Source: Spirochaetia bacterium
GTDB lineage: Bacteria > Spirochaetota > UBA4802 > UBA5550
Length of the DNA: 64,000 nucleotides
Assembly: GCA_009885955.1 (NCBI GenBank)
Contig: VFJS01000003.1
Span: forward strand, 147,086 to 211,085
Reading direction: 5' to 3'
In this document: positions 2,275 to 54,365 of the stretch, piece by piece
How positions within the stretch are numbered: the stretch's first letter is position 1
How the letters are laid out: every line of letters starts with the position of its first letter
Translations under genes and position numbers: made by a program
The notes under the pieces: generated by a model
Told to the model about the DNA's origin: nothing
The model's database searches: none
What the model saw: the letters and a program-made list of their open reading frames with translations, nothing else

Positions 2275-2425
2275 ATACCGGGGTCTGCCTCCTTTGAGAG
2301 TGTCCAAATAGTAAATAAAGGATTTGCCACAGAGGCCCTGAGACACAGAGAAGTATTAAGAATTATAAGCTCTTTCCGGAATGTTGGGCAATATAGATAT
2401 TTATAGACTTATCTTTGGAAATATT

Positions 2426-2468
2426 GCCCTCACCCCCGGCCCCTCTCCCGGAATAGGGAGAGGGGTGC
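2426..2468. repeat. GC-rich palindromic repeat, module A copy 1 (GCCCTCACCCCCGGCCCCTCTCCCGGAATAGGGAGAGGGG)
   Basis: Perfect hairpin CCCCTCTCCC/GGGAGAGGGG. The same 40-mer recurs reverse-complemented at 5549-5594 and degenerate at 10561-10602. Confidence 0.8.
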
Positions 2469-2577
2469 TAGTTATATATTTGTATGACCTCTTGATGCCA
2501 CTTATTCAGGGTAGAAACTATTTATTGTAAATGTTTTAGAAAAAGATGATTAATAAAAAGTATTAAAGATATATAAA

Positions 2578-2682
2578 ACCCTCGCCCTACTGGGAGAGGC
2601 GACAGGCAGGAGGCCTTAGTGTCGAGCGCGGACAGGATGGCCGAAAAGCGCTCGACGAACGCGCGGAGCGCGGGTGAGGGCA
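2578..2682 (+). repeat. 105-bp structured GC-rich repeat, module B copy 1
   Basis: Near-identical (1 mismatch) to 10629-10733. It has a closing helix CCCTCGCCC/GGGTGAGGG and an internal 9-bp stem GTCGAGCGC...GCGCTCGAC. Confidence 0.85.
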
Positions 2683-2730: not shown

Positions 2731-3630
2731 GTGAAAATAGGATCCATCTCGGACATCCATATCGATATAAACAGATCCAGGGGGTACCCCGATGTTTCCG
2801 CTGACCTTTTACACTACATTGAGGGACTGGGCCTCGATGTCCTCATAATCCCAGGGGACATCTCAGGGACCTCCAGGACAATTGAGAATTTTTTTATTGA
2901 GGCAGATACGCTCTCTGTCCCGGTAAAGATCTTTGTGCCGGGGAACCATGACATCTGGGTTAACGGCAAAACTTCAGACGGCTCCATGATAAAGTATACT
3001 TCAATCCTTCCCGGGATCTGCAGTAACCATGGATGGCATTATCTTCCGGGCAACCCTCTGACACTGGGAAGAACAGCCTTCCTGGGTGCCATGGGATGGT
3101 ACGACTATTCACTGGCAGGGGACAAGGGGAGCCGTCTCTTTTCCAATGACGTGTATGAGAAAAAAATAAGCCCCGGCGGCGCCATGTGGATGGATGGAGA
3201 GTATGCCAGGTTCGGCATGTCAGATACCCGGGCCTCGGCATTGATGGTTGAAAATCTGAACAATGATTTGAAGAAAATAAAAATTCTCACCGATGCCGGC
3301 GGGGCGGATGAAACCTCCAGTCCGGTGAATGTAATTGTTGTGACCCATTTCATACCATACCGGGATTTTGTCTATTCCACCGGAGATCCCGATTATGACT
3401 TTTTCAATGCCTTCATGGGCTCGGCCGGTCTGGGTGAATGTATCAACACACTGCCGCAGCACCTGCGCCGTATAGCGCTTTTCGGGCACACTCACCGGCC
3501 CATGAAAAGGGCCATGGAGAGCGGTGTCGAGGCAGTCTGTGCGCCGCTGGGGTATCCGTCTGACCATGGGATGCTGTCTTTTCATGAAGCCCTGAACCGG
3601 AGGGTCGCTGTTTTCACTGTGGAGAATTGA
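2731..3630 (+). CDS. Calcineurin-like metallophosphoesterase
   Basis: Motifs 'SDIHID', 'IPGDISG', 'PGNHDIW', 'GHTH' fit the D-x-H / GD / GNH(D/E) / GH-x-H signature. Starts with GTG. Confidence 0.8.
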   Translation: MKIGSISDIHIDINRSRGYPDVSADLLHYIEGLGLDVLIIPGDISGTSRTIENFFIEADTLSVPVKIFVPGNHDIWVNGKTSDGSMIKYTSILPGICSNHGWHYLPGNPLTLGRTAFLGAMGWYDYSLAGDKGSRLFSNDVYEKKISPGGAMWMDGEYARFGMSDTRASALMVENLNNDLKKIKILTDAGGADETSSPVNVIVVTHFIPYRDFVYSTGDPDYDFFNAFMGSAGLGECINTLPQHLRRIALFGHTHRPMKRAMESGVEAVCAPLGYPSDHGMLSFHEALNRRVAVFTVEN

Positions 3631-3772
3631 GGGGGAATATCTATTGATAAAAGAAATTTTTTTACTCCGAAAATAACTTGACATACAAAATATTGAATAG
3701 TATTTTTTTTCAGTATTCAGTCACCGGTGTTCTAATTTTATATATTATTAACCTGTTATTTATTGTGAAATA

Positions 3773-3967
3773 ATGACCTATAAGGAAATTTTGAGGATTA
3801 TAGAAGAAGACGGCTGGTACCTTTCCCGGCAGAAAGGAAGCCACCGGCAATATAAACATCATACCAAGAAAGGACTTGTAACTATTGCCCATCACGGGGT
3901 CACGGAAACGATAGGACAGAAGATGCTGAAAAGCATTTTGAAGCAGGCACAGATTAATCTGAAGTGA
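3773..3967 (+). CDS. hicA: HicA-family toxin (mRNA interferase)
   Basis: 64 aa, 'LSRQKGSHRQYKHHTKKGLVTIAHHG...ILKQA' matches the HicA/YcfA fold signature. Immediately followed by hicB. Confidence 0.8.
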   Translation: MTYKEILRIIEEDGWYLSRQKGSHRQYKHHTKKGLVTIAHHGVTETIGQKMLKSILKQAQINLK

Positions 3968-3974
3968 GGAAAAC

Positions 3975-4190
3975 ATGTACAGATATATTGTAATATTTGA
4001 AAAGACAAATGACGGCTACAGCGCATCGGTTCCGGCACTGCCAGGCTGCGTTGCTATGGCAGATACAAAAAAGGAGATCGAAGAGCTTATATATAAGACG
4101 ATTTTATTTCATATCGAGGGCATGAAGGAAGAAGGCCTGGAAATTCCCGAAGAGAACGACATAGAAGTTGAGACCATGGTGTTCGCATGA
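3975..4190 (+). CDS. hicB: HicB-family antitoxin
   Basis: 71 aa, 'YRYIVIFEKTNDGYSASVPALPGCVAMADT' is the HicB/UPF0150 N-terminal motif. 8 nt downstream of hicA. Confidence 0.75.
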   Translation: MYRYIVIFEKTNDGYSASVPALPGCVAMADTKKEIEELIYKTILFHIEGMKEEGLEIPEENDIEVETMVFA

Positions 4191-4332
4191 AATATTTTTT
4201 TTAAATTCCGGTGGTCATACGCCAACCTACGCCCTTGAAACCTTCCAAATATATCAATATATCTTTAAAAAAACAGTTGAAATTAATAACCATTCCGATA
4301 GTTTTATCTAAATCAAAAAATAGAGGTTCACA

Positions 4333-5493
4333 ATGACCACAGGCCATAGGATCTTTTTTGGTATTGCTGTTTCAATCATCCTTATATTAACCGCTATAAT
4401 ATTTTTATCTAATAAAAAAGCCGATACCCATTTCAATTATCTCGATTTTTTCATAGGCAGGGTCGGTATCATTAAAAACAATAGGGCTGTTGAGGCCGCG
4501 GAAATTAAAAAAAAGCTCTTCCCCGGTGATACAGTGAAAACAGGCGCCGAAACAAAGGCCTTCATTCAGTTAGGCGCTGACAACATGGTCCAGGTTAATG
4601 AAAATACCGAAATCTCCATGGCCGGGCTCCCCGGCATGCTGGAATCATCAGACGGCAAAACATCTCTGGAGCTCAGACAGGGTAAAATTTTAATGTTCCT
4701 GAAGAAACTCGGGAAAAACGGCGAATTTTTTGTTAAATACAGGACTACGGTCATAGGTGTCAGAGGGACCGCCTTTTCCATGGAGGGCAGTGATGATGTA
4801 TTGTCCGTAACGGTATTGGAAGGGTCGGTGAGCATAAAGAGCGATAAAAATGATTTTCCCGGATTTATTATTGAAAGCGGGAAAAAGGGAGTGATTAAAG
4901 GAGCTGATGTTAAAATCGGAGAAATGAATCGGAGTGATCTCGATTCATTCAGGGAAATTACCGCGTTAAGGCCTCTGGCAGGGATAAGCTGCATGCCAAA
5001 AGAATATGTTGAGGAGTACTTCATCTGGAGGCTCGATATAAAAAAACATTCAAGGGGCGATGAAAAGGTCCCTGATGAAGAGAAAAAAACATCATCCCTG
5101 GAAAAGGAATCCAAAACAGATTCATTACCCGCGCACACTGATGCCAGGATAAGGATAAAAATCAACCCGCTGACAGCAAACGGGGTGGAGCCCGGGGAAG
5201 CCTCTGACATCACTGAAAAATTATACAACAGGCTGGCTGCATTAAAAGGAGGCGACTCCATAATTTATAATAAATCCGGAGATATATCAAAGAGCGCCAA
5301 CCGGCAGCTCACCGGAAGGATAAGCAAACTTGGAGCAAGCTACATTATCGCGGTCAGCGTCTCTCATGGCGAAACCGGAAGGGTGATGTTCACAAAGACA
5401 GTTACGGTGAAACCGGACCAGGTGGACAATGCCCTTAGTAACCTGGCCTCGCAGGTGAACGCCAGCGATGATATATGGGCAGTGGTGAAATGA
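4333..5493 (+). CDS. Membrane-anchored FecR-domain protein with a CsgG/LpoB-like C-terminal domain
   Basis: N-terminal TM helix, then a FecR-like block (GDTVKTGAETKAFIQLGADNMVQVNENTEI...LELRQGKILM...GTAFSME). The C-terminal ~90 aa resemble the alpha/beta fold of the downstream CsgG-like protein. Confidence 0.55.
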   Translation: MTTGHRIFFGIAVSIILILTAIIFLSNKKADTHFNYLDFFIGRVGIIKNNRAVEAAEIKKKLFPGDTVKTGAETKAFIQLGADNMVQVNENTEISMAGLPGMLESSDGKTSLELRQGKILMFLKKLGKNGEFFVKYRTTVIGVRGTAFSMEGSDDVLSVTVLEGSVSIKSDKNDFPGFIIESGKKGVIKGADVKIGEMNRSDLDSFREITALRPLAGISCMPKEYVEEYFIWRLDIKKHSRGDEKVPDEEKKTSSLEKESKTDSLPAHTDARIRIKINPLTANGVEPGEASDITEKLYNRLAALKGGDSIIYNKSGDISKSANRQLTGRISKLGASYIIAVSVSHGETGRVMFTKTVTVKPDQVDNALSNLASQVNASDDIWAVVK

Positions 5494-5548
5494 TTAAGAA
5501 TATATATTATGTTCTTGATATTAAAATTCCAACATTAGGTATTTAACG

Positions 5549-5594
5549 CCTTCTCCCCTCGCCCTATTCCGGGAGAGGGGCCGGGGGTGAGGGC
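5549..5594. repeat. GC-rich palindromic repeat, module A copy 2 (inverted orientation)
   Basis: Its reverse complement equals GCCCTCACCCCCGGCCCCTCTCCCGGAATAGGGcGAGGGG, nearly identical to 2426-2468. Confidence 0.8.
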
Positions 5595-5631
5595 AGATAG
5601 ATTTGGGCTGTAATCGTTTATCATGATTTGA

Positions 5632-6843
5632 ATGGGGAGATTTGACACAATGAAAAAATGTAACCTGGCGCTTCTTGCCGTAATTTTATTCCTTTCACAA
5701 AAACCATCGCAGGCCGAAACCATGAGGCTTGCCGTAATGGACTTAATAGCCAACAACGTGCCGAGAGTGGAGGCGCGGGCTGTAACAGACCTCATAAGGG
5801 CGGATCTCGTGGATTCGGGCATGTTCACCGTTGTAGAGAGGAGCCAGATGGATGAAATCCTGAAAGAGCAGGCCCTCCAGCAGATGGGCTGTACCGACAA
5901 CGCGTGCGCCGTGAAGGTGGGAAAGCTCCTGTCGGCGAACAAAATTCTCATTGGTGAGATGAGTAAAATAGGGGGCACCATAATATTAACCGTACGGATT
6001 GTAGATGTGGAAAAGGGCGTGGCCGAGGTTTCTTCCACCGAAAGGGTTAAATCCGCCGATGCCCTTGACGTTGCCGTGGGGAGCCTGGTCAAGCGCCTTG
6101 TTGACACACTGGGCGGCAAAAGGATAACTGACCTGGCCGGTGTCCTTGAAATACCGGAGAATTTTTCAGCCACTGACGGGGTTTACAGTGATAAAATTGT
6201 CATTACCTGGAGCCCGGTTAAGGAGGCGGATAAGTATTATGTCTTCAAGGAAATTAAGGGGAAATATGAACTGATTTTTACCACAAAGGAAACGGCCTTC
6301 ACAGACAAAAATGTCAAGTACGGCGAAAGATATTATTACCGGGTCAGGGCCGGGGTTTTTTCCAGGTTCAGCGAACTCAGCTCCACGGTTTCAGGTATGT
6401 GCGGCAAATCGGTCTCAGGATATTATTTGCGGGGGCTCATCCCCGGCTGGGGGCAGTTGTATTATAGAAATGATACAAAAGGATATATATTTCTCACCGG
6501 CTTTGCTGTTTTCACCGGAGCCCTGGGATATTCGCTTTACGATTATAATGCGAAGAAGGATGCTTACGACGGCCTCGATGCCAAATCATCGAAGAGCCGG
6601 TTCGATCCAAAATATAATGATTATAACAAGGCGGCTAACATGGCCATTAATGCAGCCGGAATTTGGGCGCTCTGGTATGCTGCAAACTGGATAGACCTTT
6701 TATGGTTTACTAAACCGGTTTTTGCCGACGATTCAGGGAGCGGTAAGACAGGTGCCAATATCGAAATTAATATATATAACAGGCAGTTGTCCAACGGGAA
6801 GGTTGATACCGTTGGGGTTCTATCGATTAATTGTAAATTCTAG
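5632..6843 (+). CDS. Secreted CsgG-like domain protein with an Fn3 domain and C-terminal TM segments
   Basis: Signal peptide. 'LAVMDL...ARAVTDLIRADLVDSGMFTVVERSQMDEILKEQ...GKLLSANKILIGEMS' matches the CsgG/curli-assembly lipoprotein family pattern. It is followed by an Fn3-like block (ITWSPV...YYYRVRA) and hydrophobic helices. Confidence 0.55.
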   Translation: MGRFDTMKKCNLALLAVILFLSQKPSQAETMRLAVMDLIANNVPRVEARAVTDLIRADLVDSGMFTVVERSQMDEILKEQALQQMGCTDNACAVKVGKLLSANKILIGEMSKIGGTIILTVRIVDVEKGVAEVSSTERVKSADALDVAVGSLVKRLVDTLGGKRITDLAGVLEIPENFSATDGVYSDKIVITWSPVKEADKYYVFKEIKGKYELIFTTKETAFTDKNVKYGERYYYRVRAGVFSRFSELSSTVSGMCGKSVSGYYLRGLIPGWGQLYYRNDTKGYIFLTGFAVFTGALGYSLYDYNAKKDAYDGLDAKSSKSRFDPKYNDYNKAANMAINAAGIWALWYAANWIDLLWFTKPVFADDSGSGKTGANIEINIYNRQLSNGKVDTVGVLSINCKF

Positions 6844-6856
6844 GAAGGAATAATTT

Positions 6857-7590
6857 ATGAAAAGAATTAATATAATGATAATCTTCACGATAATGAATTT
6901 TATGGCATGCTATATGGTATATGATACACCCAGGGACAATAAAAATGATCCCGGGGGAGATAAATATGTTTTAAGTGAAAACCTCCCAACAGTGACAATA
7001 GCTGTTACCGTGAATGTTAACGTAATAACAGTTTTAAGCACTGTCAGTAAAGGTACAACTGCTGTTACAGCTCGCGGTATATGCTGGAGCACCAGTCCAA
7101 ATCCCATTATAAGTAATTCCCATACCACTAATGGTATAGGAACTGGCAGTTTCACCGTTATTATTACAGATCTTTTTACGAGTAGTGCTCTATACTTTAT
7201 TCGGGCTTATGCAACAAATAATGCAGGAACAGCTTATAGTGATCAAATTAGTAGTAATATCTTGGAGTAATGTTGCTGATTTTATAGGAACAGGGCAGGC
7301 GAATGCTGATTTGATTATTAGTCAAACATGTCATTTATACAGTGCTGCAAAACTGTGTGACAATTATACTGACGGCGCCTATATCGACTGGTTTTTGCCG
7401 TCAAAAGATGAACTCAGTTTAATATATGCAAATTTGTATTTAAGCGGTGTTGAAGGTTTCGCTGGTTGCGGCTATTGGAATTCGTGAGGGGACTGGTTAC
7501 CCCGTGTGTTACCAGAATTTCTACGATGGCTTCCAGGGTACCGTCACTAATGACGCCACTTTCTATTTGCATGCTGTCCGGGCTTTTTAA
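6857..7590 (+). pseudogene. Frameshifted lipoprotein gene (Fn3-like 'CWSTSPNP...YFIRAYATNNAGTAYS' domain + DUF1566/Lcl-like domain) split over three frames
   Basis: Frame 2 (6857-7270) carries the lipobox and a Bacteroidetes-type Fn3-like domain. Frame 0 (7185-7487) carries DUF1566 'DWFLPSKDELSLIYANL...GFAGCGYWNS'. Frame 1 (7489-7590) carries the DUF1566 end 'CYQNFYDG...LHAVRAF'. Two +1 shifts near 7262 and 7486. Confidence 0.45.
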
Positions 7591-7654
7591 CAATTTATCT
7601 ATTTAACTATTTACTTTCCCGTGGAGCACCATTGGAGTTGTCCGTTGTGTTTCC

Positions 7655-7736
7655 GGACCGTAGGTTATTTGGTTATTTGCTTATTATGCGGGCTCCGCCC
7701 GCAGGGGATTTTCAATGGATCCTGGATTTGCTTTTA
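7655..7736 (+). repeat. Direct repeat copy 1 (~75 bp, contains palindrome GCGGGCTCCGCCCGC) flanking a two-gene cassette
   Basis: GGACCGTAGGTTATTTG(GTTATTTG)CTTATTATGCGGGCTCCGCCCGCAGGGGAT...GATTTGCT is repeated at 8496-8568 in the same orientation. Confidence 0.8.
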
Positions 7737-7795
7737 ATTGGAGGCATCAATGAGGATCCCCCTCCGATCTGGAGAAGAGTCTGCCTCCTAATCAT

Positions 7796-8134
7796 TCAAA
7801 GTCTGTGATTCGGTATATAGTTCAAAATATCATCAATGGTAATGTCATAATTGGGCATAATTTTTTCACCTTCATGTTTATGATGCGGGAAGGTTATCAC
7901 CTCTTTATGATGCGGTGAATTATCCCATCTTATAATTAAATCACCGTTAACTTTTTGCCAATGATAGGAATATTTTCTATCGAATTCATCTGAAAATTCC
8001 TTGATGAATAATCGGGTATTATTTAATAATTCAGATTCGATTTTTATAAAAAATCCGGTTTTAAAAACCCGGAAGTCCTGAATTGTATATTTTTTAATGA
8101 TTACCGAGGCATTAAGAGATTTGATAATTTCCAT
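7796..8134 (-). CDS. DUF6516/TumE-like small protein (putative toxin of an addiction-type pair)
   Basis: 112 aa with the motif 'RWDNSPHHKEVITFPHHKH'. This resembles the conserved YDNAPHH...FPHHKH signature I recall for the TumE-like family. It overlaps the upstream small gene by 23 nt. Confidence 0.45.
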   Translation of the reverse strand: MEIIKSLNASVIIKKYTIQDFRVFKTGFFIKIESELLNNTRLFIKEFSDEFDRKYSYHWQKVNGDLIIRWDNSPHHKEVITFPHHKHEGEKIMPNYDITIDDILNYIPNHRL

Positions 8135-8378
8135 TGATTATATCTTCTTTTTCTGAAATCAATTCTCTATAACTTTTATCGTATGCTTTCCATTCCATGT
8201 AGTCATCCCATTCGGTATAATTTTCAGTTTTTTCGCTATTTATCAAATTTTCAAATTCTTCAAAAGACATTTTATATTTAGTCTTCATCAAAGCGATTCT
8301 ATCCTCCGCTTTATGCAATTCATACAGGAGATTCATATAAAACAAATCTTTAATGTTATCATTATGTATAATTACCAT
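8112..8378 (-). CDS. Small hypothetical protein, putative partner (antitoxin?) of the TumE-like gene
   Basis: 88-aa acidic protein, co-oriented and overlapping the downstream gene. No recognisable motif. Confidence 0.35.
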   Translation of the reverse strand: MVIIHNDNIKDLFYMNLLYELHKAEDRIALMKTKYKMSFEEFENLINSEKTENYTEWDDYMEWKAYDKSYRELISEKEDIINGNYQIS

Positions 8379-8495
8379 ATTAGAGACCTGCCCGGAATAT
8401 CATATTTTTATATGAAAAAAATTATTATCAATTAATTGTTCTGTCAAGTAAAATATGTTTTTTGGAATCATACCTACTATGACCGCTGCATTTAC

Positions 8496-8568
8496 GGACC
8501 CTTGGTTATTTGCTTATTATGCGGGCTCCGCCCGCAGGGGATGTCCAGGTGAACCTAGATTTGCTAAA
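8496..8568 (+). repeat. Direct repeat copy 2
   Basis: See 7655-7736. Copy 2 lacks the 8-bp internal tandem duplication. Confidence 0.8.
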
Positions 8569-8576
8569 TTAATATA

Positions 8577-8981
8577 TCATTCTATCTTATCAATTAATTT
8601 TTTGATATTTTCCATAAATTTCATTAAATCAGAATAAGACCTGGTTAATTCGCCCTTTGAAAAAACTACAAAATCATCATAATCGCTTTTTGTTCTCAAG
8701 TCATAGGAATTATAAACTATTTCACCAATTTCGTGCGGGACAATGCCGGCCTTTACGAATTCCCTGTTGAACCAGCCGATCAGTTGAAGGTGCTTGGAGG
8801 TTTGGTAATTCTTTTTTAACGCAAACGCCGATAGCAAGTAATAGATACAGTAATATATCCGGTTTGCGGCTGTTTCCAGATAGCCAGTTTTTATTAAGAC
8901 ATCAATTTCAGATATAAGCGCGTCAGCTCTTTTTATGCGATGGGCAATTAAAATACTTTTATCTTCATCACTTAATGTCAT
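8577..8981 (-). CDS. HEPN-domain protein (toxin-like partner of the upstream nucleotidyltransferase)
   Basis: 134-aa all-helical protein. 4-nt ATGA overlap with the MNT gene, the classic HEPN/MNT arrangement. No canonical Rx4-6H motif was seen, so toxicity is uncertain. Confidence 0.6.
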   Translation of the reverse strand: MTLSDEDKSILIAHRIKRADALISEIDVLIKTGYLETAANRIYYCIYYLLSAFALKKNYQTSKHLQLIGWFNREFVKAGIVPHEIGEIVYNSYDLRTKSDYDDFVVFSKGELTRSYSDLMKFMENIKKLIDKIE

Positions 8982-9331
8982 ACGGTAATGCCGCTTTCAA
9001 TGGCCTTTTGAATAAAGGGTTGTTTTCCGCGAATTGTATTAAGCTGGGGTTTCGATATAATTTTTGCGTCAATTATAATATCGTATTTCAAGCTGATATC
9101 ATAACAAATTTTTTTTATATTCGATTCAATAGAAGAGTTAAAGTCTGATAATAATATGATAAGAATATCATAATCTGAATATTCACGGGCAGTTCCGTCA
9201 ATCCTGGATCCGAATAATAAAATATTATCCAGAATGTTTCCAAATGCTTTTAGTAATTCGTTTTTCAGGTCTATTAATAAAATATTATTATCCAATTTTT
9301 TGTTATCCTCGATGATGAATTTCTCTTGCAA
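8978..9331 (-). CDS. Minimal nucleotidyltransferase (MNT/MntA-like antitoxin)
   Basis: 'LLFGSRIDGTAREYSDYDILII' is the GS-x9-DxD polymerase-beta-type NTase motif. Confidence 0.75.
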   Translation of the reverse strand: MQEKFIIEDNKKLDNNILLIDLKNELLKAFGNILDNILLFGSRIDGTAREYSDYDILIILLSDFNSSIESNIKKICYDISLKYDIIIDAKIISKPQLNTIRGKQPFIQKAIESGITV

Positions 9332-9515
9332 TTCCTGTTTTATGCGCTTTCAGCGCCTTTTCGGCGATACTATCAAAGCGATGCTCCTTAATATCTTTTT
9401 CAATCTGCTTGTCCCACTCATCTGAATCATATTTTCTAAACCATTCCCTGAGAGTAGAAAGATCTTTCCGATCAAGCTTTATGATCTCTTGCTCCAATTT
9501 TTGAACTTTTGTCAT
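9303..9515 (-). CDS. Small hypothetical protein (possible addiction-module component)
   Basis: 70-aa charged helical ORF overlapping the MNT start by 29 nt. No motif recognised. Confidence 0.3.
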   Translation of the reverse strand: MTKVQKLEQEIIKLDRKDLSTLREWFRKYDSDEWDKQIEKDIKEHRFDSIAEKALKAHKTGIAREIHHRG

Positions 9516-9804
9516 TATTTTATAGTCTTAAAATTGAATAAATAAATGCTAAATATTAAATAATTATAGTTCAATAATATAAAATTAAAAAAAATACGTC
9601 AATTATTTTAAATGGTGTAAATTGGCAAAGTTCTCTGTTAATATTTAATGATATACAGTAGTTTATGCAAAAGGGTCAAGATTAGCGTCTGATAGGGAAT
9701 GCCTTCTTCCAGCGCTAATTTCCCTAGAACAGCCTGATTCCTGTCTGTAATATTTCTTTTGCAAAGGGATTTTCCCGGTTAAAGTCTTCAGGTAAAAAAA
9801 GGAA

Positions 9805-10200
9805 TTACTTCAAGTTCACTGCCCACTTCCGGATAAATACCGTTATATCCGCCTTGCCAATATCCCCTTTCGTTACTGATAAAACCATTTTCACAAGTTT
9901 ATCCTGTAACACGGTCATATCATATCCATTTGAGATAAGAAATACAAGTGCAGAGGCAACGGCGGTCCGTTTGTTTCCATCGACAAAAGGATGATTTTTA
10001 ACAATATGAAAGAGATATGCCGCAGCAATTTCAAAGAGGTCAGTGTGAAGGAATTCGCCGCCATAGGTGGCAATTGGAATTCCCAGTGCCGATTTAAGCA
10101 ATTCTATATTCCGGATGCCGGGTGAACCTCCATAGCGGGTGACCTGATCTCTATGGATTTCGAGAACTTCAGAAAGACTCAGGAAAGATATCTCTTTCAT
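9805..10200 (-). CDS. doc: Doc/Fic-family toxin (death-on-curing)
   Basis: Fic motif 'HPFVDGNKRTA' (HPFx[DE]GNKR). Confidence 0.85.
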   Translation of the reverse strand: MKEISFLSLSEVLEIHRDQVTRYGGSPGIRNIELLKSALGIPIATYGGEFLHTDLFEIAAAYLFHIVKNHPFVDGNKRTAVASALVFLISNGYDMTVLQDKLVKMVLSVTKGDIGKADITVFIRKWAVNLK

Positions 10201-10202
10201 CC

Positions 10203-10430
10203 CTATTGGGCCAGTTTTTTAAGGGCTCTGGCATATTTATTGTTAACCTTATCCAGGGCTGTTTTGAATGTGGCCTGCCGGTTTACGTCCCTTATTGGTG
10301 TGAGCACCAATGCCTGCCCGTCTGTCGTGACGTCAAAGGGGGTGTCTGCCTCAACCCCGAGAAGATCGAGAATCGGTTTTTCGATAACCAGCGCAAGGCT
10401 GTTCCCATGTTTTGTGAGTGTTTTTATCAT
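10203..10430 (-). CDS. AbrB/MazE/SpoVT-type antitoxin (Phd-like partner of Doc)
   Basis: 75 aa. 'HGNSLALVIEKPILDLLGVEADTPFDV' is a looped-hinge-helix swapped-hairpin motif. Its stop is 2 nt upstream of the doc start. Confidence 0.7.
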   Translation of the reverse strand: MIKTLTKHGNSLALVIEKPILDLLGVEADTPFDVTTDGQALVLTPIRDVNRQATFKTALDKVNNKYARALKKLAQ

Positions 10431-10560
10431 AATGAACCTCGCGCAATGTTAATACTATGTAGTTACAATGTATTAACAAAATATTTTTCTGTCAATATTT
10501 TCATTATTTTTCCTTGAAAAAAGTATTGCAAATCCCGGAAAAGATTATTTTTCAGATAAT

Positions 10561-10602
10561 GCTCCCACCCCCGGCCATCTCCCGGAACAGGTTGAGAGGT
10601 GG
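10561..10602. repeat. GC-rich palindromic repeat, module A copy 3 (degenerate)
   Basis: GCTCCCACCCCCGGCCATCTCCCGGAACAGG..GAGAGGTGG compared with module A. It lies 26 bp upstream of module B copy 2. Confidence 0.6.
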
Positions 10603-10628
10603 TTGTACATATAAGTTTTGTAATTGAA

Positions 10629-10733
10629 ACCCTCGCCCTACCGGGAGAGGCGACAGGCAGGAGGCCTTAGTGTCGAGCGCGGACAGGATGGCCGAAAAGC
10701 GCTCGACGAACGCGCGGAGCGCGGGTGAGGGCA
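10629..10733 (+). repeat. 105-bp structured GC-rich repeat, module B copy 2
   Basis: 1 mismatch relative to 2578-2682. It ends ~35 nt upstream of the SDR gene start. Confidence 0.85.
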
Positions 10734-10757: not shown

Positions 10758-11486
10758 ATGCGAGGCAACATGAAAAAAGCAATAATCATCGGGGCAACAT
10801 CGGGCATCGGTTACGCCCTGGGCAAACTCCTCCTTGAAAAGGGGTTCCACGTTGGCATGTGCGGAAGGAGGACAGGGCTCCTCAATGATCTGAAGAAGGA
10901 ATATGGCGGCAGGCTGCATGTACAGAAGCTTGATCTATCGGATACTGCAAAGTCGATAAAAGGTGTTGCCGGCCTCATCAAAAAGATGGATGGCATGGAC
11001 CTTCTTGTCGTCAGCTCAGGCGTGGGGTTTCTCAATCATGAGATGGATCTGAAAAAGGAAATGGATACCATCAGCATAAATGTTGCCGGATTCACTGCCA
11101 TGGCAAATGCCGCTGTGAAATATTTTGAAAAGAAATGTTCCGGCCACATTGCAGCCATATCATCCATCGCCGCTGTCAGGGGAGGCTCTGAATCCCCGGC
11201 GTATAACGCGTCAAAGGCCTACATGTCCAGTTATATGGAAGGGCTGAGGCAGCGGATGTCCAGGAGGGGGGCTGAAATTTACGTGACCGACATCCAGCCG
11301 GGTTTTGTCAATACCGCCATGGCAAAGGGTGACGGGCTCTTCTGGGTGGCGCCGCCGGAAAAGGCTGCACGGCAGATATTCAGGGCAATACAAAAAAGGA
11401 AAACACATGTCTATATCACAAGGCGGTGGAGGCTCATCGCATGGCTCTTGAAAATAGCGCCGGCGTTTATCTATGACAGGTTTTGA
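10758..11486 (+). CDS. Short-chain dehydrogenase/reductase (SDR)
   Basis: 'IIGATSGIGYAL' (TGxxxGxG), 'NASKAYMSSY' (YxxxK). The likely true start is ATG at 10770 (MKKAIIIG), which has a GAGG RBS. Confidence 0.85.
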   Translation: MRGNMKKAIIIGATSGIGYALGKLLLEKGFHVGMCGRRTGLLNDLKKEYGGRLHVQKLDLSDTAKSIKGVAGLIKKMDGMDLLVVSSGVGFLNHEMDLKKEMDTISINVAGFTAMANAAVKYFEKKCSGHIAAISSIAAVRGGSESPAYNASKAYMSSYMEGLRQRMSRRGAEIYVTDIQPGFVNTAMAKGDGLFWVAPPEKAARQIFRAIQKRKTHVYITRRWRLIAWLLKIAPAFIYDRF

Positions 11487-54022: not shown

Positions 54023-54365
54023 CGCCCGGCCCCTTCTCCCGGCAAGGCTGACTTCTACCCACATTTCTGTAAAAGAAGCACTTTAACCTAAGCCCCCGGC
54101 GGATAGAATCAATTCTTGATTATAACATACTGCCGCCACCCCCGGAGGGGGTTTATTACCATTTTTTTCATTCCAGAAAACGTTTTTCACAAACTATTTA
54201 TATAAAAATATCTGAATTAATGTATTTCACTGCATAAAAAATACTTTTTTTATTAACCCCCTCCGGGGGTGGCCGGAAAAGATTAACACATCATAAAAAT
54301 TCCCTCGGCCGGGGGCTGCTACATAAGATGTGGGTAGAAATCAGCCGGCAGGGAGAAGGGGTGTG
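54023..54365. repeat. ~345-bp composite palindrome with three nested GC-rich inverted-repeat pairs around an AT-rich core
   Basis: Pairs: CCCGGCCCCTTCTCCCGG..CTTCTACCCACAT / ATGTGGGTAGAA..CCGGCAGGGAGAAGGGG; GCCCCCGGC / GCCGGGGGC; GCCACCCCCGGAGGGGGTT / AACCCCCTCCGGGGGTGGC. The outer arms share the CCCCTCTCCCGG-type motif of repeat module A. Confidence 0.8.

Follow-up and report, generated by a model that had tools for sequence, protein, structure and literature searches.

BoxC/PIT/TMECO-class repeats in an uncultured spirochaete, with a probable variant that carries an expanded second loop

Module A, a compact G/C-rich repeat that lies between genes of an uncultured Spirochaetia bacterium, is a new member of a known family, BoxC / PIT / TMECO, which an earlier note on this DNA had missed. 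The window analysed here, a 64,000-nucleotide stretch of contig VFJS01000003.1, contains five units (Table 1), and we consider it probable that they are DNA repeats of the BoxC/TMECO class that form structures and have no dedicated regulatory role, module B being an expanded-loop variant that was recently duplicated or homogenised. The motif comprises a C-rich block, a complementary G-rich block, with which it would form a 9-10-bp hairpin, and a second, mirror-related block rich in G; when the DNA is single-stranded, this block may lie in the groove of the hairpin as a purine-motif triplex. Module A would be the compact form, and module B a form whose second loop has grown from 3 to 72 nt by gaining three hairpins. 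Module B and other units with second-loop hairpins are a variant that we did not find described in the searchable literature.

Sequence blocks and position of the five units

All copies claimed by the earlier note were recovered by sequence comparison within the window, with ends that shift by a base or two, and its description of the units as intergenic and much richer in G+C than their surroundings was borne out. All five units lie between ORFs and have G+C contents of 75%, 70%, 76%, 69%, and 71%, as compared with 23% and 19% in the two spacers. The flanking gene pairs encode an NTP-transferase and a metallophosphoesterase, a FecR-domain protein and a CsgG-like protein, and a Fic toxin and a short-chain dehydrogenase. 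The NTP-transferase gene stops 152 nt before A copy 1, and the FecR-domain gene 62 nt before A copy 2. Module B ends close upstream of + strand genes, as had been noted: copy 1 ends 48 nt before the GTG (2731) of the metallophosphoesterase gene, and copy 2 ends 24 nt before an ATG at 10758 or 36 nt before the ATG at 10770, the start used in public gene calls.

Table 1 Repeat units in the window and contig ends at positions that were not predicted (positions are those of the window)
Feature	Position	Strand	Description	Basis	Parts and remarks
Module A copy 1	2425..2465	-	Complete triplex-motif (TM) unit	Sequence, block positions, 10-bp hairpin	In + coordinates: CCCTCACCCC 2427-2436; loop CGG 2437-2439; CCCCTCTCCC 2440-2449; loop GGAATA 2450-2455; GGGAGAGGGG 2456-2465
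Module A copy 2	5555..5595	+	Complete TM unit		CCCCTCGCCC 5555-5564; TATTCC; GGGAGAGGGG 5571-5580; CCG; GGGGTGAGGG 5584-5593; CA
Module A'	10560..10602	-	Decayed TM unit		5' part ~79% identical to A
Module B copy 1	2579..2682	+	TM unit, second loop expanded	Sharp boundaries, folds	C block CCCTCGCCC 2579-2587; loop 1 TACT 2588-2591; first G block GGGAGAGG 2592-2599; 72-nt insert 2600-2671 with hairpins ~2604-2616, ~2621-2656, and ~2660-2672 (last one CGCGC-GGA-GCGCG); second G block GGGTGAGGG 2672-2680; CA
Module B copy 2	10630..10733	+			Same as copy 1 except C10642 (loop 1); 27 nt downstream of A'
Unpredicted contig ends	2419, 2666, 10655			Logan contigs L209-L213, L001, L218, L221	

Holder et al. 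gave the TMECO consensus as 5'-CCCTCNCCC N3-6 GGGNGAGGG N3 GGGNGAGGG, a motif earlier named BoxC and then PIT element (Holder et al. 2015, PMC4666352). The motif is defined as having no more than one mismatched triplet, and most copies have one; the types differ by the second loop, which is TTA or CCG (type B), and ITxF allows loops of 1-6 nt (PMC4666352). E. coli K-12 harbours 23 copies, all between genes and without strand bias, with inverted pairs at five loci that comprise one unit of each type (PMC4666352). The HPGQ quadruplex-hairpin motifs or switch of Kaplan et al. 2016 (PMC5100583) apparently represent the same E. coli motif, and BoxC is listed alongside PU-BIME and ERIC among the E. 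coli repeat families (PMC2267715).

Both complete copies of module A contain the blocks CCCTCNCCC, GGGNGAGGG, and GGGNGAGGG exactly and in this order. They constitute a 41-nt inverted repeat (2425-2465 and 5555-5595) with 40 of 41 positions complementary (98%), and copy 1 in its G-rich reading on the minus strand is CCCCTCTCCC-TATTCC-GGGAGAGGGG-CCG-GGGGTGAGGG, with CCCCTCTCCC at 2449-2440. The first loop measures 6 nt and the second, CCG, 3 nt with 10-mer blocks or 5 nt with 9-mer blocks; module A does not match the literal published TMECO pattern and is within the ITxF loop range (1-6). Copy 2 has a G mismatch in its C block ("mm" type) that most E. coli copies also show, and folding with DNA as well as RNA parameters gave 10-bp G/C stems. 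The third unit, A', matches the 5' part of A at 79% (10549-10576); its remainder is decayed and its hairpin lost, as the fold is no better than that of shuffles (z ~0). Matches to module A with 80-90% identity are present in 756 of 5426 complete E. coli genomes, the best ones (85% over 46 nt, 90% of the query covered) being intergenic BoxC copies. The one that we inspected belongs to an inverted pair of (+,-) order in the yijF-gldA spacer, whereas the pairs in the window are (-,+).

The earlier note had distinguished two separate modules, a view that we abandon, as module B holds the three sequence blocks of A. Module B reads CCCTCGCCC-TACT-GGGAGAGG-[72 nt]-GGGTGAGGG-CA, with a first loop of 4 nt and a second of 72 nt. 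All 30 block positions are shared with A copy 2 (CCCTCGCCCTA, GGGAGAGG, GGGTGAGGGCA), the identical stretches being the 11 nt at either end of B and the first G block, and the two differ only between the G blocks. Since the blocks are identical, B corresponds to the three-block unit of A in which 72 nt replace the second loop of 3 nt, and A(-)+B(+), an arrangement seen twice in the window, is an inverted pair of one motif in two unit types. Compared with the TMECO blocks, the B copies show CCCTCGCCC, GGGAGAGG(c) with eight of nine positions matching, and GGGTGAGGG; their second loop falls outside the loop length by which TMECO is defined. The two B copies are 99% identical (2576-2682 and 10627-10733, 105-107 nt), the single difference being T2591 versus C10642. 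Their edges are sharp in the alignment of the A-B loci, running from (A)AACCCTCGCCC to GGGTGAGGGCA with at most ~13 nt of weak similarity beyond. The A/T-rich spacer that separates A(-) from B(+) (2466..2578, 23% G+C) shows no relation to that of the second pair, which measures 27 nt.

Likeness to the family concerns the three blocks and their order, the length of the first loop (3-6 nt), the second loop of A if its blocks are read as 10-mers (CCG, as in type B), the frequent G mismatch in the C block, the intergenic location, multiple near-identical copies (98% for A and 99% for B), and inverted pairs of two types. The units differ from TMECO by the length of the module A blocks (10 nt versus 9 nt) and by the 72-nt second loop of B with its three hairpins. 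While TMECO was reported from 262 proteobacterial genomes, the host studied here is uncultured, and the best DnaK matches listed for it reach 58-66% and stem from many phyla. Similarity across such distant bacteria could reflect convergence on structure instead of common descent. The same hairpin core is also found in Enterobacter sp. 638, which has 100 CCCTCTCCCxx(x)GGGAGAGGG palindromes that are presumed terminators and are unevenly spread, many of the intergenic sites having two or three of them; these were described as hairpins only, and a third block or an expanded loop was not noted (PMC2869309).

It is almost certainly wrong that the modules are a chance duplication with no family behind them. 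Only two B and three A copies exist within the 64 kb, and a block scan of the remaining 53 kb revealed no further unit. However, 100 dinucleotide-preserving shuffles gave no match to either module, the same motif occurs by the hundreds in unrelated metagenome contigs and also in E. coli, and the contig breaks described below demand more copies or alleles. The 9-nt blocks CCCTCNCCC and GGGNGAGGG were counted 14 times in the window versus 1.07 expected, with ten of the 14 inside the five units.

Folding and expanded second loops

Folded as RNA, module B adopts the closed structure that the earlier note had described, with a 9-bp closing helix (CCCUCGCCC/GGGUGAGGG) that includes one G-U pair and an inner stem that measures 10 bp. 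The predicted energy is -51.3 kcal/mol (z -3.15 versus shuffles) and the opposite strand folds about equally well (z -3.13). With DNA parameters, B instead forms the TM hairpin followed by three more hairpins in succession, i.e., AGGC-AGGAG-GCCT, a 9-11-bp stem (GTCGAGCGC ... GCGCTCGAC), and CGCGC-GGA-GCGCG, and GGGTGAGGG is left unpaired; the last hairpin directly adjoins GGTGAGGG. The insert of B had no relative in 2.1 Mb of fetched loci (blastn, nhmmer), a comparison of B with plasmids gave chance-level fragments only, and a 27-mer from the insert had no exact match among 185,579 species genomes, from which it follows that the host genome is absent from this collection.

Units with expanded second loops are not confined to the window. 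A metagenome scan with the pattern CCCTCGCCC N3-6 GGGAGAGG N55-85 GGGTGAGGG yielded at least 120 loci (L004-L123). The listed loci contain 619 hairpin cores in 713 kb, as compared with two cores and no complete unit in a control of 1.37 Mb around dnaK from 80 diverse genomes, so the motif is strongly lineage-enriched and not universal. Many of the matches listed are tandem units, and many others consist of one unit whose second loop is long. Among these matches, 126 distinct units were discerned, 82 of them with a second loop of more than 8 nt; 44 had loops of up to 8 nt, 15 of 9-20 nt, 26 of 21-54 nt, 39 of 55-86 nt, which is the class selected by the scan pattern, and two had longer ones. 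Expanded second loops of 13 to ~115 nt were thus frequent among the matches listed, and 38 of the 81 inserts of at least 13 nt folded with z < -2, including 20 with z < -3. Small inserts are typically perfect hairpins that adjoin GGGTGAGGG, often with C-GNA-G triloops (e.g., ggcgcGCAgcgcc), which were found in 19 of the 81 inserts among the matches listed. C-GNA-G triloops form very stable DNA mini-hairpins.

One recurrent family of metagenome units carries inserts of 39 nt, with a single hairpin, or of 66 nt, with two, at a shared site. Its stems show compensatory changes, with four pairs changed on both sides, a result that none of 500 shuffles reached, and 89% of the cells are paired versus 46-55% if the partners are slid. 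An Acido-Lenti-1 RNA (RF01687, 54 bits) at L040:5493-5538 is encoded on the same contig as this family in its two-hairpin form, which hints at its occurrence in Acidobacteria or Lentisphaerae. Locus L014 comprises a tandem array with a period of ~81 nt, whose units have A/T-rich second loops of 34-35 nt, and five putatively viral IMG/VR contigs (L204-L208) match the long-gap pattern and may carry expanded units or tandem pairs. An Rfam search of 100 kb of related loci (15 loci) gave no family over TM units.

It is tempting to guess that the second loop grew hairpin by hairpin, by template switching at a stable hairpin. Extending the E. coli work to these units, they would act at the DNA level, where transient hairpins, triplexes, or quadruplexes in single strands could lead to slippage, deletion, and rearrangement, and a role as promoter, terminator, or riboregulator would not be expected. 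The isolated TMECO strand forms a triplex in vitro, but even for the E. coli copies none was seen in vivo (PMC4666352), and the 72-nt second loop of B is far beyond the 1-6 nt used to define or measure triplex folding. TMECO loci are rearranged among E. coli strains more than control spacers are (PMC4666352).

Regulatory and mobile-element explanations

The earlier note had considered a structured 5'-leader RNA, and two observations could be taken to support module B as a cis-acting structured RNA (5' leader, attenuator, or small RNA) for the gene just downstream. Each copy is followed by a co-oriented gene whose start lies 24-48 nt downstream, a leader-like arrangement in which two cases prove nothing, and the 9-bp closing helix with its strand-specific G-U pair (z -3.15) is followed in both copies by a short U-run 6-7 nt after the helix. 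Nevertheless, such a role is very unlikely. Rfam was silent at the units in a search of the whole window at gathering score, gave only noise for 2380-2740 up to E = 10, and was equally silent on the 100 kb of related loci. The features by which cis-regulatory RNAs are curated were not found, as there is no Rfam match and the downstream genes are functionally unrelated (Metallophos, adh_short). Identity of 99% without covariation between only two copies in front of such unrelated genes is the signature of a repeat, and the opposite strand folds comparably (z -3.13). Expanded units elsewhere did not favour positions upstream of co-oriented genes (13 versus 11), although these counts are based on crude ORF calling that is unreliable in G/C-rich DNA and places half of the units inside spurious ORFs. 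The near identity of the B copies would be explained by recent duplication or gene conversion, and not by selection on a regulatory RNA.

The PIT elements of E. coli possess neither promoter nor terminator activity (PMC4666352), which speaks against a leader function and, given that termination was tested there, also against hairpins that serve as terminators or 3' mRNA stabilisers of the upstream genes, by analogy to the CCCTCTCCC..GGGAGAGGG palindromes of Enterobacter sp. 638. The latter explanation is highly improbable. It could draw on the 10-bp G/C stems, on the location of the A copies downstream of genes (152 and 62 nt past the stops), on the termination role that is assumed in the Enterobacter genome paper (PMC2869309), and on expanded units elsewhere, which followed a co-oriented gene in 17 versus 4 cases according to the same crude ORF calls. 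Yet no U-tract directly follows the stems, as the U-runs start only 6-7 nt after B, a scan for terminators was empty at every unit, and B sits upstream of genes instead of downstream. Integron attC sites, retron ncRNA, CRISPR repeats, ribozymes, and group II intron fragments were also considered and rejected, because the hallmark sequence or partner gene is absent and Rfam is silent.

The comparison with REP/BIME-like elements in the earlier note captured the general class, i.e., small G/C-rich structure-forming intergenic repeats in inverted pairs, but the units are not REP itself. REP sequences and PU-BIMEs are likewise short, imperfect G/C-rich palindromes that are intergenic, multi-copy, and of alternating orientation with short linkers, and that cause assembly breaks and local instability. 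Unlike these, the units as read have no GTAG-type tetranucleotide signature, no Y1 or RAYT-type transposase was found among the window ORFs scanned, and it is the third, mirror-related block that defines the units. A classical MITE, which the earlier note had also proposed, is not supported. The 9-nt imperfect terminal inverted repeats and sharp ends of B recall MITEs (Correia/NEMIS, ERIC, RUP), which share a size of ~100-300 nt, terminal inverted sequences, folding, and a location near gene starts. In contrast to MITEs, however, the terminal repeats are very short and imperfect, no target-site duplication was present at either B copy or either composite, no partner transposase was found among the window ORFs scanned, and no IS that could be a related autonomous element was found in the window.

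Adjacent units have a preferred arrangement. Each B copy in the window follows an A-type unit of opposite orientation, so that the third-strand blocks (CCCTCACCC ... GGGTGAGGG) face outward. Among the listed metagenome loci, adjacent inverted pairs were (-,+) in 34 and (+,-) in four cases, and seven of the 34 (-,+) pairs combine a short-loop with a long-loop unit like A and B; same-strand adjacent pairs, i.e., tandem arrays, numbered 75. Given this bias, the position of B downstream of A, which had been pointed out before, is the usual paired form of the family. The near-identical inverted A copies (2425-2465, 5555-5595) also enclose a 3.1-kb segment that contains module B, the metallophosphoesterase gene, hicAB, and the FecR-domain gene.

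A non-autonomous mobile element, either MITE-like or a REP/BIME-like substrate of a trans-acting single-strand DNA transposase, is quite unlikely as an explanation of the modules. In this case A(-)-spacer-B(+), or B alone, would have moved via CCCTC(A/G)CCC ... GGGTGAGGG and the subterminal hairpins. The copies of B are sharp-edged, 99% identical, and surrounded by unrelated flanks; the (-,+) bias puts the same inverted blocks at the outer ends; and C-GNA-G triloops are common among the small second-loop hairpins. The contig breaks at 2419 and 2666 are compatible with another 306-nt unit (2390-2695) or an allele without 2420-2665, and a second element of the window (54135-54273) has the same layout with similar outer ends. 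Against mobility, the lack of target-site duplications and of transposase genes among the ORFs scanned has to be weighed, as well as the partners of B, which are only ~79% alike compared with 99% for B itself and indicate that the composites were not recently copied as units. In addition, the E. coli motif was not found on transposons, phages, or plasmids (PMC4666352). Because of the sharp ends, the orientation bias, and the contig-break pattern, we still allow for some mobility. A more far-reaching proposal, unlikely in our view, is that BoxC/TM is the terminal module of widespread undescribed modular elements, TM(-)-spacer-TM(+), in which hairpins gather in the second loops (13 to >100 nt) and whose composites are copied by a single-strand DNA mechanism. 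One such element, shortly after its duplication, would then be represented by module B and the possible 306-nt unit 2390-2695.

The second element just mentioned is a 22-nt inverted repeat (54135-54156 and 54252-54273, 95% complementary) with a 95-nt A/T-rich spacer, located between an acyl-CoA dehydrogenase gene and a cholesterol-oxidase-like gene. Each arm carries a CCCCC-GGA-GGGGG mini-hairpin, and the outer ends (TGCCGCCACCCCCGG) resemble the outer end of module A (TGCCCTCACCCCCGG) in a layout that mirrors A-spacer-B.

Copy number, genomic setting, and implications

Ends of short-read contigs (Logan) were compared with the k=31 graph branching that is predicted from the copies visible in the window. 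Breaks occurred as predicted at 5591 (5561 + 30), 5566 (5596 - 30), and 10704 (10734 - 30). At three further positions they did not: contigs of five samples all stop at 2419 (expected 2454), the contig to the right of B copy 1 begins at 2666 (expected 2653), and contigs that enter B copy 2 from the left stop at 10655 (expected 10672). The last of these breaks requires a further B copy or allele in which the variable position of loop 1 is C, while those at 2419 and 2666 fit either a further 306-nt composite (2390-2695) or an allele that lacks 2420-2665. The samples hence contain more copies or alleles than the window shows. A 15.5-kb contig extends, unbroken, ~13 kb upstream of the window start, and together with the lack of units in the remaining 53 kb this indicates that the units are clustered.

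All five TM units are situated within or at the edges of a toxin-antitoxin-rich region (3630-10500), whose G+C content is 32-44% between 4 and 10 kb. This region encodes HicA/HicB, a TumE cassette, an MNT/HEPN pair (8577-9331), and a Fic protein with a 75-aa partner (9805-10430). By analogy, such a setting would be compatible with the instability reported at TMECO loci, and the TM units most likely mark an unstable, toxin-antitoxin-rich stretch. Within it, a 64-nt direct repeat (7669-7732 and 8502-8565, 89% identical) with the hairpin GCGGGCTCCGCCCGC brackets a small cassette that contains a gene of the TumE toxin family (7796-8134, -) and an 88-aa partner ORF (8112-8378); this cassette looks like one that was inserted or duplicated at a specific site.

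BoxC / PIT / TMECO elements have been known since the 1990s, but their function and spread are not understood. For the genes of the window, the present results remove one riboswitch candidate and add none. The units fragment short-read assemblies at predictable positions and are consequently under-represented in metagenome-assembled genomes. Their occurrence in an uncultured lineage, a second loop that accepts hairpins, and the preferred orientation of the pairs could provide handles on how the family grows and moves.
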